A stretch of 64,000 nucleotides of DNA from a virus (IMGVR_UViG_3300020424_000002:32001-96000); one strand, 5' to 3'; numbered from the stretch's first letter, positions 43,712 to 61,427 are shown. The notes: a model not told the origin generated them from the sequence alone. Made by a program: numbers and translations.

Positions 43712-43963
43712 TTATAACTCCTTTATTATATAGTTCAGTCCAGCTGCACTTCTATATTCTACAACCTCATCATCTTCGGTTGTAAACTTTAAATGTTTTT
43801 CTTTCTGTACTGAAATCTTTTTCACTATATAACTTTTATCATCTGCATCACCCCATTCTTTGTTGAATGATACTGTCACTTCATATCTTGTTCTGAATAA
43901 GTCTATAAACCACCAAAATGCAAACTTAATCCATTCCCAAATTTTAATTATCCACTTTCGCAC
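43712..43963 (-). CDS. Hypothetical protein (GTG start proposed; track extends to 44062)
   Basis: GGAG upstream of GTG at 43963; Trp-rich amphipathic N-terminus. Confidence 0.55.
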   Translation of the reverse strand: MRKWIIKIWEWIKFAFWWFIDLFRTRYEVTVSFNKEWGDADDKSYIVKKISVQKEKHLKFTTEDDEVVEYRSAAGLNYIIKEL

Positions 43964-45038
43964 TTGCTCTCCACTGATAACATGACCAATATCTTGCTTT
44001 CCATTTAGGGCCAGGGTCTGAACAATTATGTCTTGCTCTAAATGACTTTCTTCGTTCTGCATTATCTCTGTTTATACCCATGTTAGGGTCTCCAAAACGA
44101 ACCACTACGACTTTTCCTTTCTCATTCTTTACATAGACCTTAAACTTCTTGTTAGGGTTCTCAGAAGTCCTTATAGGGTCGTTTAGTGTAACTTTCTTAC
44201 CTTGATACTCTGCTTCTGTAATTACATGGTCATAATATCCTAAACATTCTGCACAACATTCTTCTTGAGCTCTTTTGATTTGGTCTGCTGTAGGAGCTCC
44301 TTTTTCACCCTTTTTCCTCATCTTCTCACCAGAACCAGCTTTAATTCTTGCCTTTTTCTTTCTGATATTGTCCCAGAGACCTTCGTCTAATTCATCATCA
44401 CCTAATTTTAAAAACATTCTATTTTTAATTTGTTTTTTATCGGATGCAGTCATTCCTGCTTGTTTTGCAAGAGAGTTGATAAATGCAAGACCATCTTTTT
44501 CATTTGCTTTGTATCTCCTACCCATTTCTTTCTTAAGACCATTTGCAATTATGTCAAGAACATGAGATACATTTGTCACTATCCTACCATCTGTCATAAG
44601 TCTTGCCTCATTTACAGACTGTAGTGAACCTTTTAAAACAACTTTTTTCTTTTCTTTTTCTTTGTTTTTTACAAGAGGTGGATGTTCGTCTTCGTCACCA
44701 GCAACAATCATACCTATTTGATTTATTAAAGATGTAACTACTGGTGTGGGTAATTGTGATAATTGTTGCATCACATCTTTAGATAGACCTTTTACATTTT
44801 TTAGTTTCTTTTTCCAAGAAGAGATTGCAGTCATATCTTTTTTTCTTGATTCATTCATTGACTGACCAGGCGTATCATCCATATACCTTTTCAAAAGTTC
44901 TGGTGTTCCTACTTCTCTATAACCAGAGTCTTCTTTCTTTTTCTTTTTACGAACAATAGGTTTATCAGTAGAAACTGCAGCTCCAGTTGAGTTTACTGGT
45001 GCGTCTTCGAACATTTCTTTAAACCTTTTTATTTTCAT
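43944..45038 (-). CDS. Modular basic protein, putative internal head polyprotein
   Basis: MKIKRFKEMFE; modules start after SMNE, SVNE, ELDE, VITE; C-terminal AEYQG...RRKSFRARHNC...RYWSC domain. Confidence 0.6.
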   Translation of the reverse strand: MKIKRFKEMFEDAPVNSTGAAVSTDKPIVRKKKKKEDSGYREVGTPELLKRYMDDTPGQSMNESRKKDMTAISSWKKKLKNVKGLSKDVMQQLSQLPTPVVTSLINQIGMIVAGDEDEHPPLVKNKEKEKKKVVLKGSLQSVNEARLMTDGRIVTNVSHVLDIIANGLKKEMGRRYKANEKDGLAFINSLAKQAGMTASDKKQIKNRMFLKLGDDELDEGLWDNIRKKKARIKAGSGEKMRKKGEKGAPTADQIKRAQEECCAECLGYYDHVITEAEYQGKKVTLNDPIRTSENPNKKFKVYVKNEKGKVVVVRFGDPNMGINRDNAERRKSFRARHNCSDPGPKWKARYWSCYQWRASAKVDN

Positions 45039-46126
45039 GCTACCTCTTCTAATGGTTTACTTAATTCTTCCCATGATGTTTCGTAGTCTGATTCTGCATC
45101 AATCCATTGTGAAACACCTAACTGTTCATATTTAGGTAAAAGTCTATCTGGAAGTAGTCCAATCTTCTTAAGATTAGGCATGACTCTGTTAAATAATAGA
45201 TATTGAAATTGTGAACTTAATGTATTTTCTTTAGACCATTCGTCTGTATATTCTAAATCAAATCCCCATTTTTCCCAAACTTCATATTGTTTAAATCTAT
45301 TTCTCATAACAGTACATGCTTCCAAACAAAAATCTTCTCTTTCTATTCTTTCTTTTTCTGTTAGTGTTGTAACAAAACTTGTTAAATAATTTACACCAAA
45401 TGTTACATGTCTTGCTTCATCACGAATTACAAGTCCTAACAATCTTTTAAATACTGGGTCTTGAGTAGTATCTCTTATAGTATTAAAGATTGCAAGTGCA
45501 AGTCCTTCTATGATAATTTGCATTCCTATGAATTTAAAATCCCACCTTGGGTCTGTGAGTATCTTATCTAGTAATGCTTTTAAATTTTTTCCAATAGGCA
45601 TAATTCTACCTATTCTAGTTTGTAAATATTTGTTAAATGCTTCTACATGTCTTGCCTCATCAAAGGTCTGAGAAGCTGCATATAGTTTTGCATTGAATGT
45701 TGGAGCACAACTTGTAAGTTGAGATGCAACTAGTAATGCACCTTGTTCACCATGCATAAGTTGACTTATAGTCCAATCTTGACTATCCTTAATAAACTGA
45801 CATCTATCTTCATAGGATAACTTTGCATAATCTTTATGGTTTTTCCATTGGTCATCCATAAACTTAAAACCTTCATCACTAAATTCTGGATAAGGAATAC
45901 TCCAATCTACATCCTTTTCTACATTCCATTCTAACTCTTTACCAAGTTCATATAATTTTTTTATACGATTATCTTGTACTTTGTAATCCCAGTTATAACA
46001 ACCAGTTAAAGGTGTGTTAAATATTTCTATCACATCTTCTGGATTTATTTCTTGTTCTACTGGATAGTTTGCACCTTCAAATAGTTTGTCTTCTAAAGGT
46101 GGATTGTCTACTTTAGATATTTTCAT
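45035..46126 (-). CDS. Ferritin-like diiron enzyme (AurF/desaturase-like)
   Basis: HGEQGAL, DEARH, EGLAL, RDEARH. Confidence 0.85.
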   Translation of the reverse strand: MKISKVDNPPLEDKLFEGANYPVEQEINPEDVIEIFNTPLTGCYNWDYKVQDNRIKKLYELGKELEWNVEKDVDWSIPYPEFSDEGFKFMDDQWKNHKDYAKLSYEDRCQFIKDSQDWTISQLMHGEQGALLVASQLTSCAPTFNAKLYAASQTFDEARHVEAFNKYLQTRIGRIMPIGKNLKALLDKILTDPRWDFKFIGMQIIIEGLALAIFNTIRDTTQDPVFKRLLGLVIRDEARHVTFGVNYLTSFVTTLTEKERIEREDFCLEACTVMRNRFKQYEVWEKWGFDLEYTDEWSKENTLSSQFQYLLFNRVMPNLKKIGLLPDRLLPKYEQLGVSQWIDAESDYETSWEELSKPLEEVA

Positions 46127-46707
46127 TTTACATCGTGTCCTGTTATTAACATTGATTGGTCTTTACTGTAGTTATATACACGATATATATCTACACCCAT
46201 GACATTATCAGTTTTACCTAAGATTTGTACTCGGTCTCCTCTAGTACCAATACAATCTTCTTCGTTCCAAACTGATTGTCGTAATTCGTAGTCTTTTCCT
46301 TTTACCAAATTATTTTTATTATCATGTCCTTCTAAAAGGTCAAGTGTTAAATCATTTTCTTTTAAATATGTGTAGAACGATTCTTCTAGATATTTTCCAT
46401 CTATTTCAAAATGTTCTTTGAGAAGTGCTAACGATGCAGCGTAAGATGCAAGTCTTGTCCTACCAAATGGTAGAAGTTCTAAGACTCTTTTTAAATTAAA
46501 TACTAACCTGTGTAGTAATGTGAATGAATTTTTTTCTTCTGAGGTTTTAGGTTTTTTGGTTTTTATTCTTTTACCATTATCATCAATGAGACCGAACTTA
46601 TATGCATCCATCTCACTCCACTTTCTGGTCATCATTTTTAGAATACGAAATACAATGACTGTATCAACTACATTCATTGCACCTTCTTTTAACTGTACCT
46701 GTGTCAT
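46123..46707 (-). CDS. Conserved T4-like hypothetical protein
   Basis: AYK.G.ID..GK, T.LHRLVFNLKR, SYAA.L.L.KE. Confidence 0.7.
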   Translation of the reverse strand: MTQVQLKEGAMNVVDTVIVFRILKMMTRKWSEMDAYKFGLIDDNGKRIKTKKPKTSEEKNSFTLLHRLVFNLKRVLELLPFGRTRLASYAASLALLKEHFEIDGKYLEESFYTYLKENDLTLDLLEGHDNKNNLVKGKDYELRQSVWNEEDCIGTRGDRVQILGKTDNVMGVDIYRVYNYSKDQSMLITGHDVK

Positions 46708-47072
46708 AATTCTCTTAATACCCCTGCTACTTCCATATCTATTGGTATTTCAGTCTTCCAATCTTCTGTCACATAGTCCATATAGATTAAACAAGTTTTG
46801 AGTACAGGCCAGTACTCTTGGTCTATTTTGAATTCTAACATTTTTATTGTATTTTCGAATCCAAAAATATTGAAAATGACAATGAGATGATTAAGAATTA
46901 ATCTTTCTCTGAGTTCACCATTTTTATAATATCTTCGTAGTAATCTTTTTAAATACCTAAACCTACGAAGGTCTTCCATGAACTCTTCCATCGATGTGCA
47001 TTGAGGGTTATCATAACACTGCATTGCAAACATCGTGAAGTTCTCATCTGTTAAATTTTCAAATAATTTCAT
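46704..47072 (-). CDS. Conserved T4-like hypothetical protein
   Basis: L...NF..FA...YDNPQC....EF.EDL.RF.Y.KRL, ERLILNH. Confidence 0.75.
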   Translation of the reverse strand: MKLFENLTDENFTMFAMQCYDNPQCTSMEEFMEDLRRFRYLKRLLRRYYKNGELRERLILNHLIVIFNIFGFENTIKMLEFKIDQEYWPVLKTCLIYMDYVTEDWKTEIPIDMEVAGVLREL

Positions 47073-47121
47073 AATTTATATCCTAGTATTATACTAGTAT
47101 ATAGGTGAATTATAAGAAAGT

Positions 47122-47568
47122 TTACTTAATGTTTGCAACTACTTTAAACATCTTGTTAGGAAGTCTTTCGTATTCAACATGCATTTTAAGTTCTGGGCCT
47201 TTTGATGAAATGAAGTCGTCATCTAAGTCGTTACCTTCTTCATCTTTACCCATTCTACCACCATATTGAGTGATAGGTAAGTCCATTGAACCAGAATCAG
47301 ATACATCTTCATCTATGATTGTGTCAAATTCTATTCCAACTTGTTCTACTTTTCTGTATAATTGTTCTAAAGCAGCTTGAACTGTAATGTGTTCTCTATC
47401 TGCAATGTCACCTATCCAAGTATTTAATCTAGACAAAACTTTTGAATCAGATGCAAATAGGTGTAAATCCTCTGTAGGTACTCGACCTGTAACATCTTTG
47501 TTTAGTCTGTATCCACCATTTGCACCTGTATCATATGCTTCACTAATGTATTTCTTGAATGATTTCAT
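47122..47568 (-). CDS. Putative internal head protein
   Basis: N-terminus MKSFKKYISE resembles the T4 capsid targeting sequence. Confidence 0.6.
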   Translation of the reverse strand: MKSFKKYISEAYDTGANGGYRLNKDVTGRVPTEDLHLFASDSKVLSRLNTWIGDIADREHITVQAALEQLYRKVEQVGIEFDTIIDEDVSDSGSMDLPITQYGGRMGKDEEGNDLDDDFISSKGPELKMHVEYERLPNKMFKVVANIK

Positions 47569-47580
47569 AATAATTTCCTA

Positions 47581-48150
47581 TTATGCAGCTACTGTAATTG
47601 TACCCGCTGCAGTTCCTATTGAAGCTGCACTTGTAATTGTTGCATTACCACCCTCTGCTCTATCAACGATAGTTCCACTGTTAAGTGCTAGTGGGTTTGC
47701 ACCGAAACTTAATATATCACCTGCGTTTGTAGCTGCATTGTTAGCTCCAATTGCAAGAGAGAATGTAAGTTTGTTGGTTGATGAACCACTTGCATATGCA
47801 AGTAAGTGTGGCCCTCTTCCAGAACCAGAACCTTGGTTTCCATTAGTTACTGATAATGTAGGTGTTCCACCAGAAGTATTAACTGTTACTTTTTCATTAA
47901 AAGTTACTGTTGCTGATAATGTACCACCATCTGATTTATCAAATGCTGTTGATACCCAATCAATACTTGTTATGTCTGCTTGACCGATAGAAGTTGCAAG
48001 TTCTCCAATTGCACAGAGAACCTCTTCTGGATGATTGTCAGACTTCTTAAATATCCAGCCTCTTGCATCTGCAAAGACCAATTTCTTTTGTGCAGCTGTC
48101 AACCACTTTGGTTTGGCTTCGTCTGCATCTGAATTACCCCATAAAGACAT
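47581..48150 (-). CDS. Virion structural protein with Ig-like domain
   Basis: MSLWG, KPKWL, V.FNE.V.V..G.P.L, YASGS.TN.L.F; late promoter at about 48207. Confidence 0.65.
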   Translation of the reverse strand: MSLWGNSDADEAKPKWLTAAQKKLVFADARGWIFKKSDNHPEEVLCAIGELATSIGQADITSIDWVSTAFDKSDGGTLSATVTFNEKVTVNTSGGTPTLSVTNGNQGSGSGRGPHLLAYASGSSTNKLTFSLAIGANNAATNAGDILSFGANPLALNSGTIVDRAEGGNATITSAASIGTAAGTITVAA

Positions 48151-48226
48151 AATTATCTCCTCATTTGTTAGTTCTCTGACTGAAAACTTTTTTGTTTATA
48201 CTCTTGTATTTATAACTTTTGATATC

Positions 48227-49447
48227 TCAATCACCCCAATATGCTTTAAAATCCGATTCTTTTTCTACTTCATTTACAAAGTCCATATTGATTTCATCTT
48301 CAAAAACCACTACAACACCATTAGCACTGAAATTATGTGGGTTTACAATATATTTATCTTCAATAATTTCTATGTTTGTAGGATGTGGAAGACCATATTT
48401 TTCATGTAAATGCACTGGATATTCTTTACCATTTTGTAAAACTAACTTAGGAAATTTCTTACCGACAAAACAATCACCTATCTTCTGAGGATTGTTTCTA
48501 AATGCATCTAAGTATTCGTTACCACCTAAAAGTAATGGAAAAGTATTTTGTACATATGGTCTACAATTATTTTCTAAGAAATATAATTCACCATCTTCTC
48601 CTAACATCTGAGTAATACTACCTTCATATGTACCACCCAGTTTAGCAGCTGCATTTAAATAATCTACTACATTATCCCTAACCTGTTTATCTATTTCTGG
48701 TGTGAGTTGTTCTATAATTGTATTAGTAAACCATGCAGTAGGGCCTTCCCCAGCAATTTGTTTTGATTTTGACTCATCACAATGTTCTGAAAATGTAAAT
48801 GACCATTTTCCTTCTGACATAATGTAAGATATGTTTGTTTCATATCCTTTAATACGCTCCTCACAAAAATATTTCATTTTAATTGGAATACCTAATAGGA
48901 CTCCAATTGGTGTTTTTTCAAGTATTTTTTTATCTTGGACAACTGTTGAAGAATTCCAAAACTCAGATGGTTTTAAAATAAACTGATTAGGTAATGGTTC
49001 TGTATTTAACTCTCTGTGGTCTTCACCTGTTTGTAGAGTTTTAGGTACTTTCATACCACACTTTTCTGCAAACATTTTTCCAAATTGTTTTTCTGTTTCT
49101 AATTTTATTGATGTTTCATTTGCAGATATGATATCAATTCCAAAATCTTTTTTATGTATAATACTATTAAAAGTAGGCCAAGTGTTTATGATTAAATCAA
49201 TTTTATATTTTTCTATTACTTGTTCTAATTTATCTAAATGTGTTAGTGGTAAGTTGTTACTGAGTTCAGTATAATTGTCTGGATTTGTAAAAACACGATA
49301 TTCAATGTCTGATATTGAATTTATGTTGAGTGTTTTTAAATAATTTGGACTTCCTGTTTGAGTAGTATATACTGTGTGACCATCTTCAACTAATTTTACT
49401 TGCCATTGAAGATTATGATACTCCATTTCTGTAAATAATATATTCAT
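48227..49447 (-). CDS. Divergent ATP-grasp protein (PurD-like fold)
   Basis: LE..K.FGK.F....G..VP, ILKP, EE.I.G.E, FLE.N.R; lacks the PurD GGREH motif. Confidence 0.6.
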   Translation of the reverse strand: MNILFTEMEYHNLQWQVKLVEDGHTVYTTQTGSPNYLKTLNINSISDIEYRVFTNPDNYTELSNNLPLTHLDKLEQVIEKYKIDLIINTWPTFNSIIHKKDFGIDIISANETSIKLETEKQFGKMFAEKCGMKVPKTLQTGEDHRELNTEPLPNQFILKPSEFWNSSTVVQDKKILEKTPIGVLLGIPIKMKYFCEERIKGYETNISYIMSEGKWSFTFSEHCDESKSKQIAGEGPTAWFTNTIIEQLTPEIDKQVRDNVVDYLNAAAKLGGTYEGSITQMLGEDGELYFLENNCRPYVQNTFPLLLGGNEYLDAFRNNPQKIGDCFVGKKFPKLVLQNGKEYPVHLHEKYGLPHPTNIEIIEDKYIVNPHNFSANGVVVVFEDEINMDFVNEVEKESDFKAYWGD

Positions 49448-49465
49448 AATATAGATATGTAGGTG

Positions 49466-50458
49466 TTATGCCATACTTCTTTTTATTGCACCCAGAGCTT
49501 TCATAAAAGATTGTTTGTTCTTCCCTAATAATTTGATTAGTTGTACTCTCATTTGTGGTTTTACTCTATCTAGTGCCATGTTAATTATTTTTGCATTTTT
49601 TTGGGTTACCTTAATTGTTTTACCATCGTCTAGTTTTACATCACTACCAGTTCTTAAATCCTCTGCACCTTTAAGTTGTACTTGAAGATTTTGGTCTGGG
49701 TCATTTGCACGAGGGCCTAACTTTTTAACTCTATCCCTTTGTTGAATAAAGTCTTTAATATTTTGTGAGATATCTTTATCTGGTTCAAAATCTGTATACT
49801 TACCAGCACCGACTGCTTGTGCAAACTTTTTACTTGGTGTTGATGACCCTTTTGCAAAGTTTACTATTTTATTCATTGCATCTTTAAAGTCTTTTGCTTT
49901 ATTTGCAATGTCTCTTATTTTATTATTTGCAGCTGGACTGTTTGCACCAAAGTCATGAAATGCACGAGCTTCATATGCAAGAACTTCTCCATACATTTTT
50001 TGATAGTCTTTAGTATACTTAGACTTACGCATAGGTTCTTTTCTTGCTTTTTTATCGCCTGGTGCATCTTTATATGCAGATGGGTCTGAATCAGATTTTT
50101 CTTTTCCTCTTTGGAAATGTGCATCTCTTTTGGACTTAGTAGATTTTTTGAGACCTTTAAAATACTTTGCTGGTTGAGTTCCTTTTTTATCTTTGATATC
50201 TTTGTCTTGAGGTTCTCTTTCCTCATCTCTGAGACGAGGTTCAGTCCTGTTATACTTTTGTGTAACTATTGAAAGATTTGACTTATCGTTATTCATAGGA
50301 TTACCATCTTTATGATGCACATCTTTACCAACAATACCTTTGGTATCTTTTAGTTGTCTTCGTGCATGATTTCTACCAGCTCTTCTTTTTTTCTGTTCTG
50401 GTTTAGAATGGTAGTTTTCGTATTCTTTTTTGTAGTTCCTTTCTTTGAAAGTCTCCAT
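49466..50458 (-). CDS. Modular protein: HNH-like module plus basic modules
   Basis: METFKE|RNYKKEY, DVHHKDGNP.NN..NL; Y.KGL.KS...DPSAYK.APGD module. Confidence 0.6.
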   Translation of the reverse strand: METFKERNYKKEYENYHSKPEQKKRRAGRNHARRQLKDTKGIVGKDVHHKDGNPMNNDKSNLSIVTQKYNRTEPRLRDEEREPQDKDIKDKKGTQPAKYFKGLKKSTKSKRDAHFQRGKEKSDSDPSAYKDAPGDKKARKEPMRKSKYTKDYQKMYGEVLAYEARAFHDFGANSPAANNKIRDIANKAKDFKDAMNKIVNFAKGSSTPSKKFAQAVGAGKYTDFEPDKDISQNIKDFIQQRDRVKKLGPRANDPDQNLQVQLKGAEDLRTGSDVKLDDGKTIKVTQKNAKIINMALDRVKPQMRVQLIKLLGKNKQSFMKALGAIKRSMA

Positions 50459-50467: not shown

Positions 50468-53065
50468 TTAGAATGAACTTATAACATCTTTGTGATTTGA
50501 ATACTTACTTGATGATTGTCTCATGAGATTATCATAGATTTGACCTCTGGTTCTCATTAATCCATCTGGCATGTGACCGAGTGCTTTGTGAGTCATCATA
50601 ATACCTTTTAATGCATCTAGTCCTTTTTTATCACCAAGAAGTTTTGCAAGATGCATTAATGAACCAGTGTGGTCATTTCTATCTGTCATTTTTTTAATCT
50701 TGTTGATATCTGCAGCTGACATTTCTTTTTTCTCTACAAGTTCTTCGATACCTTCTTTGATATCTTCTATCTTCTGATGCCACTCTACCATCTCATCTGT
50801 ACCTTCTTTATAGAAGATTGCTTTCTTAGTCACTGGGTCTAATCCCATGTACTTACCTTTGAGAGAAGGCATCTTAACACCAATGTCTCTTAACATTGCA
50901 ACCATCTTATGAAGTCTTTCCCAGTTTGCTGGTGGATGTTTTTGTTTCCAGATTTGACCCATTAATTTGTCAATACTTTTCTCTGGGTCTTTTTCATCAA
51001 ATGGTAGTTTAGTCATCTTTGCCATCATCTTACCAAATGTTTTAAGTTTAACAACATTTGCTGGTGATAGGTTTTCAATCACTACATGATGACCTGTAAA
51101 TTCTTTTGATTCGTTTGCATGTCTAAGTGCAAGTTTAACTGCTGGATTCTTAGATAATCCTCTTTTAAGTTTTTCTATTTCTTTGATTGCATAGTTAGTT
51201 GCACCACTTAAATCAAGTGCAAGTTCAATTGCTTTCTTAACTGTTTTATCTCTTGCAGCTGCTTTTTGTTTTGGATTGTCTCTGTAATATTTGTTTATTT
51301 CTTGACCTGTAAGTTTAGATTTACCCATCTTAGATAGTGGGTCTAACTTACCATCTTTGACTCTTTCATCTATTTTCTTACCATCTTTATCATACTTACC
51401 AGACTTTTTCTTTGCAATTGCAATTGCAGCTTGTTGTGCAAAGTTTTTACCTTTACCTTCTGATACTTCTTCTCGTATTTTTTCCATACCTTTTGGATTT
51501 TTAGTCACTATATCTCTCTGAGATAATATTTTTATTAAATCTTTGACCTCATCTGGTGCAATCATAAAACTTTCATTTCTAAATCTAATAGAATACATTG
51601 TATTCGGTGCTGGAAAGACAAGATTTATTGAGAATTTACCAGATTTTTTTAATCTAGGCATCGGTAGTGATGTTTTCATTGCTTCCTCAAGTTCTTCACT
51701 TACTGCTTTTTCTAAATCATCTGCTTGTTTTGCATGTTTCTTACTTGCTTTCTTCAACATAGTGACAATCTTTTTCACTACTGGTTTGTCGTCATTATCG
51801 AGTTCTTCTGGTAAAGGTTTTACACCTTGTTGTTTGAACATCTTCATCAAGGCATTGTTAGTTGCAAGTTTGATTTTGTTATCTTTACCCATTGCAACCA
51901 TAGTATTTTTAAATCCTTGAGGATTTTGTTTTTGCATTGCCATTGCAACTTTAACACCAGTCATGTTAAGAAGTTTTGCAACACCATACTGGAACATTTT
52001 ATCACCACCAGTTTTAAATAGTTTGTCAATCATTTCACCAGCAGATGCTTCTACTAGTTCAAAATCTTCTTTTTGCATTGCGAGTTTAGTGTTAAGAGTT
52101 CCAATCATCTTAAGGATTGTATCTCTTGCATCTAAAACTTTTTTGTAATCTTTGTTATGAACTGTATTCTTAAGTTCTTTATCACCCATGTTTGCAATCT
52201 TCTGATAAGCTTTTAAGACACTCTGCATGTCTTTAGAAACCTTTTTCATTGCCTCGACTTCTTGTCTCTTGACTTCATCTAAAGATTCTTTTCTATACTG
52301 TCTCATTAATGAATCTATTTGTTTTTGGATTCTATGATATTCATCACTGTCATACTTGACATCCATCTTTTTATTTCTAAGATTACTGATTCTATCTTTA
52401 ACTGAATCAGGCATAGTTGTTAGTGCTTCTAACATATTGTCATCTGGATGTATGACATGTGCAAGGTCTTTATCGTGATTTAGATTACCTTTTTTCTTCT
52501 TGACTATAAATGCATTTACTCTTGCCATTCCCCACTGCTGTGGAGTAGTTCCTGGCCTGTGTCCTGTTTTCCATGCAGCCATTCCACGATTGTAAACTTT
52601 TCTTAATGTTCCTACTGAGATACCAGATTTTTTAGCTTTAGCTGCAAGACCTTTAGATTCATCTAAATCATTATCTTCCATCATCTTCATAAGAGGTTTA
52701 TCTTTTTGGATGTCTTTCATTAAGTTGTCAATATCTTTGTCATTACCCTTGAAGTTTACATTATTATCATCTACAAATTTACCTTTGGATTGTGTACCAA
52801 ATGTTATTTTAACTTTTGGATGTTTTTTTGCATACTTACTGATTAATGCCTGTTGAATTTTTTTCTTGTTTTTCATTGGTACAGACATCATACCATCTTC
52901 TTCAAGATAATCTAACCAATCATTGATTTCTTCGTCACGAACATCTTCGATGAGAGAGTCAATTAACTCCTCATTTAAGATATCTTCATTTGGTGTTGCA
53001 TACATTTCTCTGTATGCATCTGCAACAGATGACAGAGTTTTTCTGTTTCTCATGTAGTTTGACAT
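50468..53065 (-). CDS. 865-aa modular basic protein, putative polyprotein
   Basis: Acidic N-terminus, then about ten Lys-rich modules separated by (L/I/V)xE linkers. Confidence 0.6.
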   Translation of the reverse strand: MSNYMRNRKTLSSVADAYREMYATPNEDILNEELIDSLIEDVRDEEINDWLDYLEEDGMMSVPMKNKKKIQQALISKYAKKHPKVKITFGTQSKGKFVDDNNVNFKGNDKDIDNLMKDIQKDKPLMKMMEDNDLDESKGLAAKAKKSGISVGTLRKVYNRGMAAWKTGHRPGTTPQQWGMARVNAFIVKKKKGNLNHDKDLAHVIHPDDNMLEALTTMPDSVKDRISNLRNKKMDVKYDSDEYHRIQKQIDSLMRQYRKESLDEVKRQEVEAMKKVSKDMQSVLKAYQKIANMGDKELKNTVHNKDYKKVLDARDTILKMIGTLNTKLAMQKEDFELVEASAGEMIDKLFKTGGDKMFQYGVAKLLNMTGVKVAMAMQKQNPQGFKNTMVAMGKDNKIKLATNNALMKMFKQQGVKPLPEELDNDDKPVVKKIVTMLKKASKKHAKQADDLEKAVSEELEEAMKTSLPMPRLKKSGKFSINLVFPAPNTMYSIRFRNESFMIAPDEVKDLIKILSQRDIVTKNPKGMEKIREEVSEGKGKNFAQQAAIAIAKKKSGKYDKDGKKIDERVKDGKLDPLSKMGKSKLTGQEINKYYRDNPKQKAAARDKTVKKAIELALDLSGATNYAIKEIEKLKRGLSKNPAVKLALRHANESKEFTGHHVVIENLSPANVVKLKTFGKMMAKMTKLPFDEKDPEKSIDKLMGQIWKQKHPPANWERLHKMVAMLRDIGVKMPSLKGKYMGLDPVTKKAIFYKEGTDEMVEWHQKIEDIKEGIEELVEKKEMSAADINKIKKMTDRNDHTGSLMHLAKLLGDKKGLDALKGIMMTHKALGHMPDGLMRTRGQIYDNLMRQSSSKYSNHKDVISSF

Positions 53066-53758
53066 TTACTTTCCAGCTTTTCTATTATTGTATATTAAAG
53101 ATTTTTCCTTAACATATCCTAACCTTCTTAAGGTTTCTTTAAATGATTTACTTCTTGCATCATATTTAATCTCAGATGCATCTTCGTTTTTACCGATTGC
53201 TTTTGAGATTGCTTTTCTTTTCTTATGCAAGAATTTATCAGATGAATCAACATCACCATCATTGTCGATGTCTTTGTCTTTTCTATCTTTAAACTTTTTC
53301 TTAACTGCTTTTTTGTCTACTTTATCAAGTCCTTCACCATCATCTGATTTATCATTAGATGCATCTTCTGTATTACAATGACTTGCCTTTAGGTCTTTTT
53401 TGAGTTTTTTCTTTCCATCCTCAGAACCCATATCAGCCATTTCACCGACTGTACAAGGATACTCTTTACCAGCAAACATAAAGGTTTTATCACCATTTTT
53501 CTTTGCTTGTCTTGCAGCTGCAATGAATGACCTTTTGTCATCATTTACTGCTTTTCTAAGTTCTTGTAGTTCTTTATTGAACGATTCTGCAACTTCTGGT
53601 TTGTCCTGTAAAGGATATCCCATAAGTTCTGCTTGTTGTGCAAAACGAGATTTTGCTGGTTGTCCAGAATTAAGGACTTCTGAGACCGCATCAGCAACAG
53701 ATTTAGTTACTTTATCAGTCCCACTGTTGAATTTTAATCTATCTTTTATATCTGACAT
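53066..53758 (-). CDS. Charged modular protein (internal head/scaffold-like)
   Basis: FIAAA..AK..G.K.F.FAGK.YP; DIDNDGD.D.SD..L...RKAI; late promoter at about 53787, SD AGGAG. Confidence 0.55.
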   Translation of the reverse strand: MSDIKDRLKFNSGTDKVTKSVADAVSEVLNSGQPAKSRFAQQAELMGYPLQDKPEVAESFNKELQELRKAVNDDKRSFIAAARQAKKNGDKTFMFAGKEYPCTVGEMADMGSEDGKKKLKKDLKASHCNTEDASNDKSDDGEGLDKVDKKAVKKKFKDRKDKDIDNDGDVDSSDKFLHKKRKAISKAIGKNEDASEIKYDARSKSFKETLRRLGYVKEKSLIYNNRKAGK

Positions 53759-53798
53759 TGTGGTCTCCTATTAATGTTTCCTCTAGTATTTATATATA

Positions 53799-55220
53799 TC
53801 ACTTCTTCGACTGTGATTGTCTAAACTTTTTAAGTCGTTCTACTTCACCTTTTTTAACTTTAGGGAAGAGTTTTTTACTTAATTTTGCAATTGCACTCTT
53901 CTTTTTATCTAATTTTTTACCGATTGCAATTCTAGCACCCATTGAAAGTTCACTTGCAGCCTTACCACCAGACATTTTTTTAAATAAAATTGCTCTTGCA
54001 GTCTTCATTGCTTTTGTTTTCAATTGGTCATTAGTCTTCATTCTTTTCTTTTTACGAGCTTTAGTTCTTGCAATCTTCTGTGCAAGTCGTCTCATTCTCA
54101 TACCAATTGCCCTTCTTTGTTGCATATTAAGTACTTCTAACTGTAATTGTCTTGTTAATTCACTAGTAAATTTACCTTCTGCAACCTTATGTTGTTTCTT
54201 TGCCATGTTCATTGCTGTCCCATGCATTACTTCTTTTGCTTTATCACCATACTCTTTTTCAAAGTAATCTTTCTTTTTCTTTAAATCTTTGTAAATCTTT
54301 TCTTTCGTAGCCATAACTGCATCGGATACTTCGTTTGTATCAGTCGGATTTGTACTTCTATTTTTAAGTCTAGTTAATCTTCTTCTATCTGCATCCATTT
54401 CTCTGTCATGTTTAATTTTTAATTGTTCTTTTTCTCTAGATTGTTTGTCTTTTAGGTTATCTGTAGTTTCATCTTCATTGAATAATCTTTTTTCCATATC
54501 TACTGGATGTTCATAGGAAGCTGCAAGTGCAACATTTTTCATAGGTTTCATGGTCAATGCAGATTTCCATGCAGTTGCCATTTTGTTTGAAGGGAAAGAT
54601 TTTACGAATGCTCTAAGTCTAGGGAAAATTTTAGTGGTGTTTTTATCCAAATCATTCATATCACCATCATTATCTACAATAAAAAAGTTTTGTCTACCAA
54701 ATGTAGCTTGTAGTTTACCCATGTTTTTTCTGACTGTTGCATGATTGCTTTGTACTATATTGTCTGGGATACTTCTTTCTCGTTGTCTATTTCTATCTAA
54801 TGCAGTTTCTAATGAAGTATTTACGAATACCATTGCAGTTTCGTATCCTAAATCTTGAAGGAGTTTTCTTTGTTTTACGATATTTTTTACATCTCTTGCA
54901 GTTGAATCAATAACAAGTCCTAACCGACCTTTAATATACATTTCTTGTCGTTTACCAGTGATTGCTTTTGCATGAACACGAATTGCATCTCTTTGTTCTT
55001 CTTCACTCTCTGGCATTTTAAGTGAAAGACCTGCTTTCTTAAGACCCATTTCAAATGATTGGTCTGAGTTTACTGGTCGTAAACCCATAGAACCGAACCC
55101 TAATTTTTTAGCTGCAAGTGATTTACCACTGCCTGGGCCACCTGCCATAAAGACAGCCTTAAATACGCCTGGGTCGTTAATTCCTTCGTTAAGCGAGTCG
55201 TATGTATTTTCCAATATCAT
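53799..55220 (-). CDS. Zeta-toxin/AAA_33-like P-loop kinase plus basic modules
   Basis: EGINDPGVFKAVFMAGGPGSGKS, NSD, VIDST, VFVNTS...A..RN..R.R. Confidence 0.75.
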   Translation of the reverse strand: MILENTYDSLNEGINDPGVFKAVFMAGGPGSGKSLAAKKLGFGSMGLRPVNSDQSFEMGLKKAGLSLKMPESEEEQRDAIRVHAKAITGKRQEMYIKGRLGLVIDSTARDVKNIVKQRKLLQDLGYETAMVFVNTSLETALDRNRQRERSIPDNIVQSNHATVRKNMGKLQATFGRQNFFIVDNDGDMNDLDKNTTKIFPRLRAFVKSFPSNKMATAWKSALTMKPMKNVALAASYEHPVDMEKRLFNEDETTDNLKDKQSREKEQLKIKHDREMDADRRRLTRLKNRSTNPTDTNEVSDAVMATKEKIYKDLKKKKDYFEKEYGDKAKEVMHGTAMNMAKKQHKVAEGKFTSELTRQLQLEVLNMQQRRAIGMRMRRLAQKIARTKARKKKRMKTNDQLKTKAMKTARAILFKKMSGGKAASELSMGARIAIGKKLDKKKSAIAKLSKKLFPKVKKGEVERLKKFRQSQSKK

Positions 55221-55845
55221 CTGTTATGTACTCTGGTATATGATGGAATTCTTCTCGAATTGCCATTCCTTTTCTTACTGCTTTATACAGTTGTTTTCCT
55301 TGTCTAAAAGTTCTTGGTAATGATTTAACAAATGTTTTTTCATCACCATCGAAAGCCATTGCTCTCATCTTAGATGCAGACATACCAGATATGTCATCTG
55401 CATCTGGGTCTCTTTCACCTGCTGATACCAATTCGATACTTTTAAAGTTATAGAAACCATGTCTACCTTTCACACCATTGTACTTTGTGAGTAGACTCTC
55501 AAATTCTCTTAGTCTATCTGAACCAGCAACCATCTTTACACTTCTGTATCCTTGGTTATACAAGTCAACCACCACATCAAATACTGTTCTAGAATTAGAT
55601 GTAGAAACTGTTACTTTTGCTGGTCTAAACAAGAGTTTCATGAACTTTGTTTTGGTTCTATAATCTAGTGGATTCTTCTTTGGGTCTTGACTATGACTTG
55701 TATAGATGAATCCATCATCCGAACCAGCAACCTGTTTCACTTTCATTGCAAGTTTGAGATGTCCAGCAGTTGGTGGATTAAACCTACCGAATGCAAACAC
55801 AGCAGTTTGTGAATTTATCTCAACAATGTCTTTGAAACTTTTCAT
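55189..55845 (-). CDS. Cytidylyltransferase-like (HIGH superfamily) nucleotidyltransferase
   Basis: FGRFNPPTAGH, KNPL, GSDR, SAGERDPD, SASKMR. Confidence 0.85.
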   Translation of the reverse strand: MKSFKDIVEINSQTAVFAFGRFNPPTAGHLKLAMKVKQVAGSDDGFIYTSHSQDPKKNPLDYRTKTKFMKLLFRPAKVTVSTSNSRTVFDVVVDLYNQGYRSVKMVAGSDRLREFESLLTKYNGVKGRHGFYNFKSIELVSAGERDPDADDISGMSASKMRAMAFDGDEKTFVKSLPRTFRQGKQLYKAVRKGMAIREEFHHIPEYITDDIGKYIRLA

Positions 55846-55853
55846 GTAAGTAT

Positions 55854-57041
55854 TTATGTTTTTACAAATTTCTGTTCGTTGATTTTAAGTGCATCATAAT
55901 CCATTTGCACATATTCTCTACATACATCCCACCACTCTTTTAAGTCTTCATCTTCTTGTAGTTCTTCTATAACTCTTTGTCTAATTTCTGGTGTGACATT
56001 CATATGAGTATGGGCATACATGCTGTGAGATTGTTTTTGGTGAAACTTAACCTTAACTTCATCATCAATAAATCCTAAATCTATTAATGTATCAATTGCA
56101 CCAGCTGTCTTTTTCAAAGATTCTTCTGATGGATGTAGAAAACCTAGTCCACTTTGTGTATAGTCTATGTCGTGTTTATAGTGTACAAGATTATCGTAAA
56201 TGTCATACATTGATTTACCATTCCACAATGGTCTTGATAATACGAAAGTATGATTCATTTGTTGTCCTTCTAATCCACCTATTAGTAATCTTTCTGGTGG
56301 ACAAAAATATATTATTCTTTTTGCAGAATTGTAATATCTTTCCCATCCTTCTTCTGTATCTGCATCTAAATCATATATCCATGGACAAGACATACCATTA
56401 TCCATTTCAGTTATAAGACCAGATATAAATCTTTCCCAAGGGTCACGAACAAGTAAATACGATGTCCAATCGTTGAAAAAATTTAATTCTTGAAATGGTG
56501 GAGTCAGTTCTGAATCACGACCTTCACCATAATTTTTAGGAGTAGCTTTCATTCCATAATCCCATGGACAGTTATCACCAAAAAATTCTTTTGCTTCTTT
56601 CGAACCCCTCTTAATAATTTTTGAATATGCAGTAAGAGGATTCAAACTCCCATCAGGAGCCTGTTTCCAGTGTTCTGGAATATTTTCATAACCATGCATT
56701 ACAACTCTTTTGTTAGGTTGATACATATCTGTAACAAATTGCAGATATTCTTCATCTGATAACCAAGTTCTTGGATTACGATTTTGGTCTTCAATCCAAA
56801 CCCAGTCATCATCAAACATTTCGTTTTGTGCGTTTAGATAAAAACGAATTGAGGAATGTCCTACTTTACGAGGACATGTAAGTATTACTTTTCTTTTTTT
56901 AGATATGAATGTGGGATGACATCTTTCCCAACATGTTTCACCATCAAAATGTGCATTAACAGTAAAAGTTTGTTTTCCAACTGTTATTTGAACTTCATTA
57001 TTTTCATTAAATGAAGCAAAAGATTTCAAAGAATCTGACAT
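55854..57041 (-). CDS. Sulfotransferase-like protein
   Basis: PAPS-binding-like RKVGHSSIR and VRDPWERFISG; Y...DY tail. Confidence 0.6.
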   Translation of the reverse strand: MSDSLKSFASFNENNEVQITVGKQTFTVNAHFDGETCWERCHPTFISKKRKVILTCPRKVGHSSIRFYLNAQNEMFDDDWVWIEDQNRNPRTWLSDEEYLQFVTDMYQPNKRVVMHGYENIPEHWKQAPDGSLNPLTAYSKIIKRGSKEAKEFFGDNCPWDYGMKATPKNYGEGRDSELTPPFQELNFFNDWTSYLLVRDPWERFISGLITEMDNGMSCPWIYDLDADTEEGWERYYNSAKRIIYFCPPERLLIGGLEGQQMNHTFVLSRPLWNGKSMYDIYDNLVHYKHDIDYTQSGLGFLHPSEESLKKTAGAIDTLIDLGFIDDEVKVKFHQKQSHSMYAHTHMNVTPEIRQRVIEELQEDEDLKEWWDVCREYVQMDYDALKINEQKFVKT

Positions 57042-57057: not shown

Positions 57058-58269
57058 TTATTTGTCCCAGTCTTTTTGTACTGTAAAGTTATTTAGTGAG
57101 AACTCCATTCGGTCTACTAACTTCACTGCACCACCAAGATTATTGTCAATTGCAACAAAACCCTCTGGTGCAACGACATCAAAACCATTATCTTTTTTTA
57201 CAAACAATTGTGTTAATTGTTTTGCTTTATTTACTTTAGTAAGTATCTTAATCTTTGCATAGTTTATCAATGCTTGAAACTCTACTAAAGTTTTAAGTAA
57301 TGTTAAATGTTTTCTAATTTGTGTAAGATGTATGTTTTTGTTTTTCTCTGCTGTCTTTTTTGCAGATGTAACTTTGAGTTTATCTATTTGTGCATCAAAC
57401 TTTTCCTCTACAAATTTAAAATAACCATCTGCATGATTCTTATAGTTTAATCGTAAAAAGTTTGTTCCTTCTCTTACTTTACTATTGTGATATGTTTTGT
57501 AACTCATGCCTGGCTTCATCTCTGATTGATGTTTTAAGAATGAATCTAGTGATGGTTTTCTTATCTTCTGAAAAACCTTACCTGTTCTGGACATCAATCT
57601 GGTTATTTCTGCACTGTCTTTTTGCGTAAAGGTTGCAGTTCCAGATACATCATTGTAGGATGCATCATCCATCCAGACCTTACTTGTTTTTTTAAGACCA
57701 GATATGTTTGCACCAAATGATGCAGTTAAATCTGATAATGAATCTCCTGTATAAGTTGTATGAAATACAATACCCACATTTGCTCTTCTCATAGTAGATG
57801 CAAGTTTAGATGTAGAAGGTACTGCATACATGATTGTATTTGGTTGAAAGGTTTCATACGATTCACCATTGATATCTTTCTTTTCTAGGTCACCTTTTGT
57901 AAACATCAAGTCACCTTGAAGTATATCTTTAATACCGATATCTTTCAGATTGTTATAACATGCTTTGAATTTTTCTGCAAGTTGTCCAGATAAATCTGCA
58001 TTTATCTCTGCAATTGATGTGTAGTATTTTGGTGTTTTGTTAAATAAACTTTTCTTTGCAACAAAGAATTTACCTGTCTCTGGGTCATTACCACAAAAGA
58101 TAGCAGGAGCTCCATCCCATTTTACAGTGACATTAACACTTCTCTTACTTCCAGACATCAACATGTCACGAAGTGACCTTATAAAGTTTATAGATGCACG
58201 ACCACCATCAATACCATTATTGAATATTTCGTCTTCTATATGTTCTAAATGTACATTAGGACTTGGCAT
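57058..58269 (-). CDS. Conserved T4-like protein of unknown function
   Basis: HLEHIED, VKWDGAPA, QGD.MF, FQPNT..Y, PEGFVA, KLVDR.EFS..NF; KxDG suggests a ligase-like nucleotidyltransferase fold. Confidence 0.7.
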   Translation of the reverse strand: MPSPNVHLEHIEDEIFNNGIDGGRASINFIRSLRDMLMSGSKRSVNVTVKWDGAPAIFCGNDPETGKFFVAKKSLFNKTPKYYTSIAEINADLSGQLAEKFKACYNNLKDIGIKDILQGDLMFTKGDLEKKDINGESYETFQPNTIMYAVPSTSKLASTMRRANVGIVFHTTYTGDSLSDLTASFGANISGLKKTSKVWMDDASYNDVSGTATFTQKDSAEITRLMSRTGKVFQKIRKPSLDSFLKHQSEMKPGMSYKTYHNSKVREGTNFLRLNYKNHADGYFKFVEEKFDAQIDKLKVTSAKKTAEKNKNIHLTQIRKHLTLLKTLVEFQALINYAKIKILTKVNKAKQLTQLFVKKDNGFDVVAPEGFVAIDNNLGGAVKLVDRMEFSLNNFTVQKDWDK

Positions 58270-58588
58270 TTCTTTCCTTCGTTTTCTTTTTCATCTTGTT
58301 TATGTATGCACGATAGACAGCTGCCTGTGCATTCTTACCCATCTCTCTTGCTCTTTGTTCCATTGCAATTGCAGCTTGTATTTTATGTGCATGAGATTTA
58401 CCAGAATTTTTAATCTTAGTGACACTTGCTTTTGCATCATCAACTGTTGCAAATTTTAATCCATGAATAGTTCCTTTAGGATTTTCATCTGTATATAAAT
58501 CAGAATGTTTTTTAGAGTTTGCAGGCTGACCTTTCTTTCTAGGTATCCTAGGATTCTTTTGTTCTATAAATTGTTTGAAAGAAATCAT
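58256..58588 (-). CDS. Putative internal head protein
   Basis: MISFKQFIE; DLYTDENPKGTI.GL.F, MEQRA. Confidence 0.6.
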   Translation of the reverse strand: MISFKQFIEQKNPRIPRKKGQPANSKKHSDLYTDENPKGTIHGLKFATVDDAKASVTKIKNSGKSHAHKIQAAIAMEQRAREMGKNAQAAVYRAYINKMKKKTKERNAKS

Positions 58589-59310
58589 TTGTTTCTTACA
58601 TTTCCTATTGCATCTGTATATGCAAGTGTTAAAGGTAGTAAGTCTTTAATAGGTAAATCTATTTCTAATGCAGTTACTTGTATAGCTGGGTCAACCAATA
58701 CAGCAGATAAGAATCTGTGGTGACCATCTATAATTCTGTCATCTTTAGATACTACATAAAAATTATTCTTAGATGCAGAAAAATCTTTAGTCCCTTTTGC
58801 ACCAAACTTAGATACATTCTTAATTGACTTGTCAAAATATATTTGACTTTGAATAGGTTTTAGTTTTCCTACTGCAATCTTTTTAATTCTAACATTTACT
58901 TTGTCATCGTCTTTATCACCATCATTCTTTGCAAGACCACCACTTACCCATTTTTTTCCTGTCTCTTTGTCTAGTCCTTGAGGAAATGGGTCATCTGGAA
59001 CTTCGTTCTTTGCAAAGGGTCTTGCAATATCAATTGCACCTGCTTTTAATCTTCTTTGTAATAGTTTGATATCTCTGTTATCGATTACAGGCATATCTTT
59101 TCTTTGTGCAAATCCCATCCTTGCAAGTTTTTTTGCAAGTTTATAGTTTCTATCGAAGTTAGGAATCTCTTTATCTATATCAAATCCTTTCTTATCAAAA
59201 AGTTTTTTTGCATATTCATATGCTTTCTTCTCATCTGTTTTGATAAGTTCCATCTTACCAGCTTCTGCACCGCCTTTACCTTCTGCTATGTATCTTCTAA
59301 AACTTTTCAT
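58585..59310 (-). CDS. ParB/Srx-like domain protein with capsid-targeting-like N-terminus
   Basis: MKSFRRYIAE; R.DMPVI, LKP.Q..I, VS.D..IIDGHHR. Confidence 0.75.
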   Translation of the reverse strand: MKSFRRYIAEGKGGAEAGKMELIKTDEKKAYEYAKKLFDKKGFDIDKEIPNFDRNYKLAKKLARMGFAQRKDMPVIDNRDIKLLQRRLKAGAIDIARPFAKNEVPDDPFPQGLDKETGKKWVSGGLAKNDGDKDDDKVNVRIKKIAVGKLKPIQSQIYFDKSIKNVSKFGAKGTKDFSASKNNFYVVSKDDRIIDGHHRFLSAVLVDPAIQVTALEIDLPIKDLLPLTLAYTDAIGNVRNK

Positions 59311-59318
59311 ATCTTTTC

Positions 59319-61427
59319 CTATACTAATGGGAATGATTTTGCAGATGATGTTATTTTAACAGTTTGAACTTGTAATCCAAAAAAGTTTAACAATGCATTG
59401 AACATTCCTTTTCCTAAATTTTTAATTTTTTTAAATACTGCTTTAACTCTTTTCATAATTGCATTTAAAATTTTCTTTGCTTGATTCTTTATTGCAGAAC
59501 CCACATCTTTAACCTTTTGTACTAATCTACTAAACATTTGAAACTCATCTAATTGTTCTACTGCACCTTCATGTAAAAGTTGCATACCCATTCTTTCTTT
59601 TTGTAATTCTTCTTTTACAATTTGTTTAAAGTTTACTTTACCACTTCTCATGGAGAGATAAGGTTTAGAACCACCACCACCTGTTTTAAATGATACATAG
59701 AACTTGTTTGTTTGTGCAAGAACTTTTGCATCCGATGGTTTGTTCATAGGAAGATGTTTAGTAATTGTTCCATTATCTGCATTAAACTCTACCAATTCAT
59801 TTGCAACTGCAAGTGGTTCTGCAAATTTTCCTATTCCAGTTGCAGCTTCAAAGCAGAAGAATTGTTTGAAATCTAAACTTTCAAATAAAGAATCCATTTC
59901 AGCAGTTAGTTCTTTTGCAGTAAATTGTAAGTTTTCCATTTGTTCTATACTTTTCTTTTGTGCTGGTGTTAAAGGTTTACCACTATCTCTAAGTTTTTCT
60001 AATGCACCTATAGTTCCTTTTTCATTCATTTCACCCATTTTCTTTTCTAAACTATCAATAACACTCTTAACTTGTCTAGGTGAATTTTCTCCCATCATTG
60101 ACATTGCAGACTCAAATGTTGATATTGTTTCTTCTTTTTTACCAGACATTAACTGTGAACCACCAGCTTTCTTTAGAGATATTTTTCTTTTTCTTTTATT
60201 ACCAAGTAAATCTGTTTTAGGTGTTTTGTTTTTACCTTTCCATTTTGGATTTAATTTTGCAGTTGAACTTCCAAACTGTTCTAGTTCAGTTATTCCTAGT
60301 TTCTTTTTGAATGTTTTTCCAAGTTTAATTGCATCCTCTCCATAGTTTGCCCAAAACTTTTCTGCTCTGTCCCACTCTGCACCTTCTTGTTTATCATTGA
60401 CTGCAACTGCAATTAGAGCTTCCCAATCTTCTCCTGCTGGTGTTGGGTTTCCATCTGGTAATCTAGTAAAGTAAGAACCATAAGAACTTGAAGTACCAGC
60501 AAGTGTTATTGATTTACCATCTGGTGCTTTTAGTTGTTTTCTTGCATCACCTGTTCCTATATCTACTGGCAAATCTTTATCATCTTCAACTTCAAACACA
60601 TCACCAGACTTATATCCTAATGAATTTAATTTACCCCATTTACCATTGTATAAAAATTGAAATCCTGTTTTATACTTTCCTTGCATTATAGATGCTTCAT
60701 TTAAATCTGAAATACCTTCAAAGTGTAGTTTAGTTTCTTTTATACCAGACTTTTCTTTGTAGTGATTATAGAATGCACCAGCAAGTTGATGACCAAACTC
60801 TGTATCCGAAGGATAGTGAACTCCAGCAATCTGTCTAGAATTACCTATATCGTCACCTATTCTTTTGATGTTACCTTTATGTTCAAATGGTACTCTGTCT
60901 GCAAGATACAAACTTACAAACCTACCTTCGGTTGCATGTCCAGAAGGATATGCTGGTGTCTCTGCTGTTTTTAGTGGATAAACATTGAAGTTTGCTTGAC
61001 GAAAGAATGTAAGAACTTTCGACAGTTTTTGTGGTCTTGGTCTGTTGTAATGTATCTTAAGTTGTAGAACAATAGGTGCAAGTTGGTCTTTTAATTTTAT
61101 AACATCTTCCAAATCTTTCATTGGTAAATCATGTTCTTTGTAATAATTCTTAAATGGTTTCATCAACTTTTGGTCAACTAAGTCCATAAATTCTCTTGCA
61201 TCATTACGATAAACTTCGTAAGATTGTAATATTTTAAGTTCTTGTTTTGTTGCTACAGAAGAATTTTTGTAAGGATGATACTCTACCCACTGTTGAACTG
61301 GGAAATCTTTAAACACTCCTCTGTCTGCATTTAACTGTTTTTTTCTCTTGGGAGACATAGGCATGTTATGACCTAGATTGTCTACTGAGGAGTTGTCTTC
61401 TTTTAGGTGTTCGTAAAATGTTTGCAT
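59319..61427 (-). CDS. PAP2-family phosphatase fused to a PD-(D/E)XK-like domain
   Basis: K...NRPRP, AYPSGH, SR..AGVHYPSD; C-terminal E...KTDL...ISLKK; start MQTFYEHLKE 5 nt after late promoter. Confidence 0.75.
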   Translation of the reverse strand: MQTFYEHLKEDNSSVDNLGHNMPMSPKRKKQLNADRGVFKDFPVQQWVEYHPYKNSSVATKQELKILQSYEVYRNDAREFMDLVDQKLMKPFKNYYKEHDLPMKDLEDVIKLKDQLAPIVLQLKIHYNRPRPQKLSKVLTFFRQANFNVYPLKTAETPAYPSGHATEGRFVSLYLADRVPFEHKGNIKRIGDDIGNSRQIAGVHYPSDTEFGHQLAGAFYNHYKEKSGIKETKLHFEGISDLNEASIMQGKYKTGFQFLYNGKWGKLNSLGYKSGDVFEVEDDKDLPVDIGTGDARKQLKAPDGKSITLAGTSSSYGSYFTRLPDGNPTPAGEDWEALIAVAVNDKQEGAEWDRAEKFWANYGEDAIKLGKTFKKKLGITELEQFGSSTAKLNPKWKGKNKTPKTDLLGNKRKRKISLKKAGGSQLMSGKKEETISTFESAMSMMGENSPRQVKSVIDSLEKKMGEMNEKGTIGALEKLRDSGKPLTPAQKKSIEQMENLQFTAKELTAEMDSLFESLDFKQFFCFEAATGIGKFAEPLAVANELVEFNADNGTITKHLPMNKPSDAKVLAQTNKFYVSFKTGGGGSKPYLSMRSGKVNFKQIVKEELQKERMGMQLLHEGAVEQLDEFQMFSRLVQKVKDVGSAIKNQAKKILNAIMKRVKAVFKKIKNLGKGMFNALLNFFGLQVQTVKITSSAKSFPLV

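Follow-up and report, generated by a model that had tools for sequence, protein, structure and literature searches.

We analysed a stretch of viral DNA of 64,000 nucleotides (hereafter the window), which represents positions 32001-96000 of the 146,136-bp virus record IMGVR_UViG_3300020424_000002 (34% G+C), and focused on a block of 17 genes between positions 43944 and 61427, all on the minus strand, several of which open with the same short N-terminal leader. An earlier note, made from the sequence alone, had likened this leader to the capsid-targeting sequence (CTS) of phage T4 and had described the block as an arsenal of packaged and injected proteins. Our reading, to which we assign a probability of about 0.78, is that in this marine T4-like phage the common N-terminus serves as a signal of the T4 type for capsid targeting and processing, and that six or more of the block proteins are internal head proteins. 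The gene content of the window is that of a T4-type phage (baseplate, gp32, ribonucleotide reductase, gp41, UvsX, polymerase), and the nearest isolate is Methylophilales phage Melnitz-3 (Kyanoviridae), with a protein identity of ~49%; when the block was compared with isolate phages by megablast, only short matches (77-82% identity) and no close relative came up.

The eight N-termini listed in the earlier note were all found on the minus strand, at 45038, 47568, 50458, 55845, 57041, 58588, 59310, and 61427. A strict pattern was defined as M..[FY] followed by ...h.E or ..hhE (h, hydrophobic residue) at a real gene start, and by this definition the proposed likeness holds to different degrees: five starts match strictly (47568, 55845, 58588, 59310, and 61427), two carry a variant (45038 and 57041), and one (50458) resembles the leader weakly. 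The genes concerned are as follows (aa, amino acids; pI, isoelectric point):

43944-45038, minus strand: 364-aa basic protein, pI 9.8, variant leader; its C-terminal domain is fused behind a tagged nucleotidyltransferase in Melnitz-3.
47122-47568, minus strand: 148-aa protein of no known family, strict 10-residue leader, supported by a family alignment.
49466-50458, minus strand: 330-aa basic protein with HNH_3 and DUF5824-N (Pfam), weak resemblance to the leader.
55189-55845, minus strand: 218-aa nucleotidyltransferase of the HxGH class (CTP_transf_like, NMNAT-like), strict 9-residue leader; orthologue of the cyanophage core gene T4-GC190.
55854-57041, minus strand: 395-aa acidic protein, variant leader from codon 5, with a sulfotransferase-like lead.
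58256-58588, minus strand: 110-aa protein, very basic (pI 10.3), with a strict leader; residues 1-12 are similar to a DUF6267 leader plus junction.
58585-59310, minus strand: 241-aa basic protein, strict leader, C-terminal ParB/Srx-like DGHHR motif, family of 32 sequences.
59319-61427, minus strand: 702-aa protein, strict leader, PAP2 (class A acid phosphatase-like) domain with three signature motifs, and a C-terminal domain of no assigned function.

The variant at 45038 has two extra residues ahead of Phe, while at 57041 the open reading frame (ORF) opens with ATG and the motif follows from codon 5, with Asn replacing the hydrophobic residue (F-x-x-F-N-E type); two relatives of this gene begin right at the motif. 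At 50458 the resemblance extends over six residues only, which makes the membership of the 330-aa protein in the cargo uncertain. The tagged start at 61427 is the second ATG of an ORF opening at 61466, and it is likely the true start, given that relatives begin at this position and that the longer ORF contains a CATAAATA box 5 nt ahead of it. In all strict leaders position 4 is Phe or Tyr, and position 7 is Tyr, Phe, His, Leu, or Ile. The six proteins that would be internal to the head are the 148-aa, 110-aa, and 241-aa proteins, the NMNAT-like nucleotidyltransferase, the PAP2 protein, and the 364-aa protein, and the 395-aa protein and a 473-aa kinase of the block are probably internal as well.

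For comparison, the T4 leaders were taken from NC_000866, where the classical 10-mer stands at the start of ipII and ipIII and a related sequence heads ipI; most of the changes that separate the ipII/ipIII 10-mer from the leaders at 47568 and 59310 are conservative. Amber-suppressor mutagenesis of the IPIII leader assigned targeting mainly to residues 4 and 7 and processing to residues 8 and 10, and Asp at position 10 stops processing, not targeting (PMC9026906). The conserved leader positions in the block are these same four (4, 7, 8, and 10), and the processing determinants, i.e., a hydrophobic residue at 8 and Glu at 10 (gp21 rule L/I-x-E), are present in the strict leaders, so the closeness to the T4 CTS suggested earlier is borne out by direct comparison. 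The block also shares with T4 IPI, IPII, IPIII, and Alt the leader length of ~10 residues, the h-x-E cleavage rule, the same head-gene module, a mostly basic cargo with unrelated mature parts, and the presence of an enzyme (Alt in T4). A pI above 9 was found for 10/15 block proteins vs. 14/120 elsewhere in the genome (P = 9e-6), and, as this resembles the basic T4 internal proteins, it is listed in favour of the CTS reading. Unlike in T4, the cargo set is larger and consists mostly of large proteins (up to 702 aa) that are enzymes or resemble enzymes and lie in one cluster, domains are reshuffled among phages, 9-residue and F-x-x-F-N-E leader variants occur, and the lineage is known from sequence alone. 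The giant phages phiKZ and SPN3US likewise contain many head-internal proteins, some of them enzymes (virion RNA polymerase), that are cut after Glu by a gp21-related protease, but their propeptides are mostly longer than 100 residues and share no 10-mer (PMC5694885). As a side observation, the unannotated T4 gp61.1 (54 aa; NC_000866 18966-19130) begins with a near-perfect CTS-like 10-mer.

The motif is concentrated in the block: across the 146-kb genome a single further gene start has the strict pattern, that of a head-core gene in the T4 gene-68 slot, and 5/6 strict occurrences fall within the 17-gene block of ~175 genes (P = 2.7e-5). The comparison was extended to 80 related viral contigs, gathered with the nucleotidyltransferase as bait, in which the strict pattern stands at 150/2160 start-proximal ATGs vs. 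14/7130 internal ATGs (odds ratio 38, or 27 once the bait family was excluded). Families for the leader counts were defined by homology of the protein body. On this basis the share of homologues with the leader is 16/17 (148-aa protein), 8/9 (241-aa protein), 11/15 (PAP2 protein), and 64/75 (nucleotidyltransferase, strict and loose forms together). It is also carried by 26/68 homologues of a DUF6267 protein of the block, directly ahead of the conserved core; in the window's lineage, DUF6267 has none. Inside a given family, the protein body varies more than the tag does. For instance, in the 148-aa family M1, K2, F4, and E10 make up four of the nine invariant columns at body identities down to 24%. 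In the 241-aa family (32 sequences, 52-79% identical), h-x-E stands just ahead of the conserved core in all 32 members and the aromatic pair is found in 28/32; members with Asp at position 10 have 7-10 added residues ending in a new h-x-E, and this second site appears to make up naturally for a first one that cannot be cleaved.

The leader is also portable between families. It starts at least 12 further unrelated families that are absent from the window but present in the related contigs, and in P-SSM2 it marks a second gene, PSSM2_115, found in that phage alone. In Melnitz-3 the C-terminal domains of the kinase and of the PAP2 protein are separate genes, each with its own leader, and the transferase is fused to pieces of the 364-aa protein and of an 865-aa block protein with the leader at the N-terminus of the fusion; the leader thus stays N-terminal through both domain splitting and fusion. 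Identical leader residues are encoded by differing codons and the upstream DNA is unrelated, which indicates that the likeness is selected at the protein level and is not a DNA repeat. These two observations also speak against the idea that the shared start is a tag for a non-capsid process, such as a handle for a modifying enzyme, a secretion or membrane signal, or a feature of translation initiation. AT-rich starts such as Met-Lys are indeed frequent in highly expressed phage genes, but the block shows no gene for a radical-SAM or similar partner, the leader is too little hydrophobic for a signal peptide, and neither the virion detection described below nor the match to the four functional T4 positions would be accounted for, so that we consider a non-capsid role highly improbable.

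A CTS would need the matching head module, and outside the window the T4 gene order is kept, with portal, gp67-like gene, gp21 protease, gp22 scaffold, and gp23 capsid (PHROG matches: portal 3e-205, protease 4e-79, scaffold 4e-69, capsid 2e-156). The prohead protease (gp21 type) and the scaffolding core (gp22) are both encoded by the phage that carries the leaders. The N-terminal region of its capsid protein can be aligned to T4 gp23, and the residues opposite the T4 cleavage point read h-x-E. The 122-aa gene with a strict leader mentioned above occupies the T4 gene-68 slot, flanked by the gp67-like gene and the protease gene; the C-terminal part of its product is acidic and contains several h-x-E sites. 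This gene is a positional analogue of T4 gp68 and not a sequence analogue: as the start of T4 gp68 is not CTS-like, the argument from the gene-68 position is one of synteny only.

Published virion proteomes of cyanophages contain homologues and analogues of the tagged proteins. The S-CREM2 virion proteome comprises 52/221 gene products (PMC10665884). Our leader scan of this phage covered ~96% of the genome, the remainder being three gaps that hold few gene starts, and found strict leaders at five annotated starts, namely gp6 (S-adenosylmethionine (SAM) hydrolase), gp14 (kinase), gp92, gp136, and gp154 (nucleotidyltransferase). Four of these five were detected in the virion, against the background of 52/221 (P = 0.0115), the sole miss being the 66-aa gp92, and the two genes with variant leaders, gp13 and gp15, were both detected. 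Separately, the virion-detected gp12 ('Cas9-like' nuclease) shows a leader-like stretch at residues 17-25, so that either its annotated start may lie too far upstream or it may have a longer propeptide. The transferase family T4-GC190 was detected in virions of S-SM1 (PMC3037559), and NMNAT-like proteins in those of S-SCSM1, S-CBWM1, and another phage, a detection termed 'frequent' by the authors (PMC9602691). The T4-GC190 virion proteins of S-SM1, S-SCSM1, S-CBWM1, and S-CREM2 are homologous to the 218-aa protein (36-46% identity) and have the same leader; in many cyanophages the protein is longer or fused to DUF6267 or DUF5824. The transferase leader is present in P-SSM2, S-CREM2, Syn9, S-RIM2, and S-SZBM1.

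The virion data also bear on an alternative in which the tagged proteins are parts of the prohead core or scaffold that serve head assembly only and, as with T4 gp22, gp67, and gp68, are lost at maturation by degradation or expulsion. The leader on the gene in the gp68 slot, with its acidic C-terminal part and h-x-E sites, would fit such a role, and T4 IPIII is known to influence head morphogenesis (PMC9026906). Against it, tagged proteins were found in mature, CsCl-purified cyanophage virions with 11-26% sequence coverage (PMC10665884), most tagged proteins are folded enzymes with intact active-site motifs, and the density of internal h-x-E sites is not raised (0.4-2.3 sites per 100 residues). 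A purely structural role is therefore unlikely in our view.

Several points count against a capsid-targeting function of the leader. Two of the eight leaders are variants and one is weak, about half of the block genes have no leader (among them the DUF6267 gene of the window's lineage), and neither T4 gp68 nor gp67 has a CTS-like N-terminus. The S-CREM2 association consists of five genes only, and the virion evidence as a whole comes from cyanophage relatives, not from the window phage or its closest isolate, Melnitz. Virion mass spectrometry may also pick up abundant contaminants. In the accessible parts of the cyanophage virion papers, no neo-N-terminus after Glu is reported for any relative.

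If the leader acts as in T4, its 9-10 residues (aromatic at 4, aromatic or hydrophobic at 7, Ile/Leu/Val at 8, Glu at 10) would tie each protein to the scaffolding core during prohead building, the gp21-type prohead protease would cut behind Glu, and the mature protein would remain in the head along with the DNA. Core binding, tag cleavage, and ejection into the host cell are inferred here from the T4 system. The part of the earlier claim that concerned packaging is supported by the motif, the head module, the conservation, and the virion detection of cyanophage homologues and analogues; ejection and early action in the host are plausible by analogy to T4 IPI and Alt, which are ejected, IPI blocking GmrSD (PMC3012670, PMC9026906), and they become more plausible with the tagged SAM hydrolase of S-CREM2. 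No ejection data are reported in the accessible parts of the papers on these relatives. With about half of the 17 genes untagged, the word 'arsenal' overstates the sequence evidence. Since some of the untagged proteins are fused behind tagged domains in relatives, we conjecture that untagged block genes may ride along with the tagged cargo. The other genes and features of the block are:

45035-47072, minus strand: untagged genes for an AurF/R2-like di-iron oxygenase (45035-46126), a 194-aa protein, and a DUF7207 protein, conserved neighbours in Melnitz-3 and S-CREM2.
47581-48150, minus strand: 189-aa gene, no leader.
48207-48214, minus strand: TATAAATA box, 56 nt upstream of the 189-aa gene.
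48227-49447, minus strand: ATP-grasp-like protein, no leader, in or beside the block.
50468-53065, minus strand: 865-aa basic DUF5824 protein, no clear leader, a piece of which is fused to the tagged nucleotidyltransferase in Melnitz-3.
53066-53758, minus strand: 230-aa basic protein, no leader, with a TATAAATA box 28 nt upstream; a counterpart follows the nucleotidyltransferase gene in cyanophages.
53787-53794, minus strand: TATAAATA late-promoter-like box ahead of the 230-aa, 865-aa, and 330-aa genes.
53799-55220, minus strand: 473-aa P-loop kinase (AAA_33/Zeta_toxin), Walker A GGPGSGKS; its C-terminal domain is a separate gene with a leader in Melnitz-3.
55851-55858, minus strand: CATAAATA late-promoter-like box, 5 nt ahead of the nucleotidyltransferase ATG.
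57058-58269, minus strand: 403-aa DUF6267 protein with KxDG and EG motifs, no leader here (26/68 homologues tagged).
61433-61440, minus strand: CATAAATA box, 5 nt before the ATG at 61427, inside the ORF opening at 61466.

The enzyme assignments made in the earlier note fared unevenly. The nucleotidyltransferase was confirmed (Pfam 26.5 bits vs. a cut-off of 21, TxGH at residue 26), and the NMNAT model TIGR00482 matched the 218-aa protein weakly, far below its cut-off; in relatives, this enzyme is fused to the kinase or to DUF6267. For the PAP2 protein the signature motifs Kx6RP, PSGH, and SRx5Hx3D are all three found in the 702-aa sequence (residues 124, 161, and 197), and acid phosphatases in the PDB match it with E = 1.6e-7, but the Pfam score for PF01569 (21.2) stays below the cut-off of 27.2. 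The HNH call stands at the Pfam cut-off. The ParB/Srx call at 58585-59310 is backed by the DGHHR motif, invariant at residues 195-199 of the 241-aa family, while its Pfam support is weak: among the ParB/Srx models (PF02195, PF08857), ParBc_2 is matched by 9/32 members with a best E of 0.003, and a PDB profile search with the family gave no match. The 473-aa kinase matches polynucleotide-kinase PHROGs, and its N-terminus, 12 conserved residues ending in h-x-E, may be a degenerate leader. The nearest named ESM Atlas cluster of the 395-aa protein is sulfotransferase-like (score 0.94, the family being assigned to 16% of the members), a lead only.

For DUF6267, the invariant residues K50-W-D-G, G119-D120, E369-G370, and K383 follow an order like that of ligase motifs I, III, IV, and V. 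A structural model (predicted local distance difference test, pLDDT, 79) aligned weakly with the RNA-editing ligase 1xdn in VIA-align (Z 6.4, root-mean-square deviation 3.3 over 117 residues, spanning 48-207). Foldseek of the model against the PDB gave nothing significant, the ESM Atlas fold search returned its own family alone, the PDB profile search with the alignment gave no significant match, and hhalign against T4 Rnl2 aligned the EG motif alone (E = 0.34, not significant), so we treat the ligase-like assignment as a lead. The 110-aa ORF and the DUF6267 gene overlap by 14 nt, and the first 12 residues of the 110-aa protein are like the DUF6267 leader plus junction in distant relatives; a gene split or insertion in the window's lineage may have left a ligase-like DUF6267 body tagless. 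Relatives of the 865-aa DUF5824 protein begin with a Tyr-type variant of the leader. A reading of this gene as a polyprotein was not supported, its [LIVM]-x-E sites (2.3 per 100 residues) lying within the range of its neighbours (0-4.9).

What the packaged proteins would do in the host is less certain than their packaging. One possibility, which we hold tentatively, is that the enzymes are ejected with the DNA and act as counter-defence before phage transcription, either against systems that signal through nucleotides or deplete nicotinamide adenine dinucleotide (NAD), or as a healing-and-sealing kit against host nucleases. Besides the T4 precedent of IPI and Alt, this is suggested by the tagged SAM hydrolase packaged by S-CREM2, an enzyme class known from early anti-restriction, by the union in one block of an NMNAT-like transferase, a P-loop kinase, an intact PAP2 site, and a DUF6267 protein with KxDG and EG, and by the fusions of the nucleotidyltransferase to kinase or DUF6267 in relatives. 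On the other hand, enzyme activity, substrate, and ejection are assigned by sequence or analogy only, PADLOC gave no relevant match (no defence or counter-defence family beyond weak HNH matches), the ligase assignment of DUF6267 reached significance neither in Foldseek nor in the hhalign comparison with T4 Rnl2 nor in the PDB profile search, and DUF6267 has no leader in the window phage. A broader version, which we consider rather doubtful as a whole, is that a combinatorial kit of CTS-addressed enzymes is common to the T4-like phages of the sea (cyanophages and methylophage- or pelagiphage-like myoviruses). It would be delivered by the virion and, at DNA entry, restore NAD or heal nucleic-acid damage caused by host defences, and its content could be read by an N-terminus scan; the proposed kit would consist of the NMNAT-like transferase, the P-loop kinase, the PAP2 phosphatase, the ligase-like DUF6267, and the ParB/Srx protein, with a SAM hydrolase or protein kinase in some phages.

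T4-like myoviruses are among the most abundant viruses of the ocean. Cyanophage virions repeatedly yield 'non-structural' enzymes (NMNAT-like transferase, SAM hydrolase, kinases), and the accessible parts of the virion reports give their presence without describing a loading signal or naming a mechanism; a short tag that can be read from sequence would explain them. A full-text literature search for capsid targeting in cyanophages or in a marine context brought up papers on T4 and on giant phages and not the cyanophage proteome papers, and the link between virion enzymes and the CTS appears not yet to have been drawn in the literature searched. The present analysis adds a genome-wide test of specificity, the conservation within families, and the connection to published virion proteomes. 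If the reading as a capsid-targeting signal is true, virion cargo would become predictable from metagenomes, the tag would show which proteins are the first to meet the host, a defined place in the infection cycle could be given to the cyanophage core gene T4-GC190, and foreign proteins could be loaded into marine phage heads, as is done with the T4 CTS in the laboratory.

As to the earlier statement that several of these genes sit under late promoters, four block genes are preceded by late-promoter-like boxes. NATAAATA boxes stand ahead of these four and of many structural genes, 38 on the coding strand vs. 8 on the other. The total of TATAAATA in the window is not enriched (11 vs. 8.8 in shuffles), and only position and strand bias are informative. 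The NATAAATA boxes of several late genes lie 5-6 nt before the ATG (55851-55858, 61433-61440, and the portal gene near genome position 143256), a spacing that would give nearly leaderless mRNAs without a Shine-Dalgarno sequence. The 230-aa protein has an Asp-rich segment, D-x-D-N-D-G-D, in common with the product of the next gene after the nucleotidyltransferase in Syn9 and S-RIM2, and the pair of nucleotidyltransferase and 230-aa-type gene is, judged by sequence, conserved across the Kyanoviridae. In or beside the block, at 43492-43710, an acyl-carrier-protein-like ORF of 72 aa without a leader was also observed.

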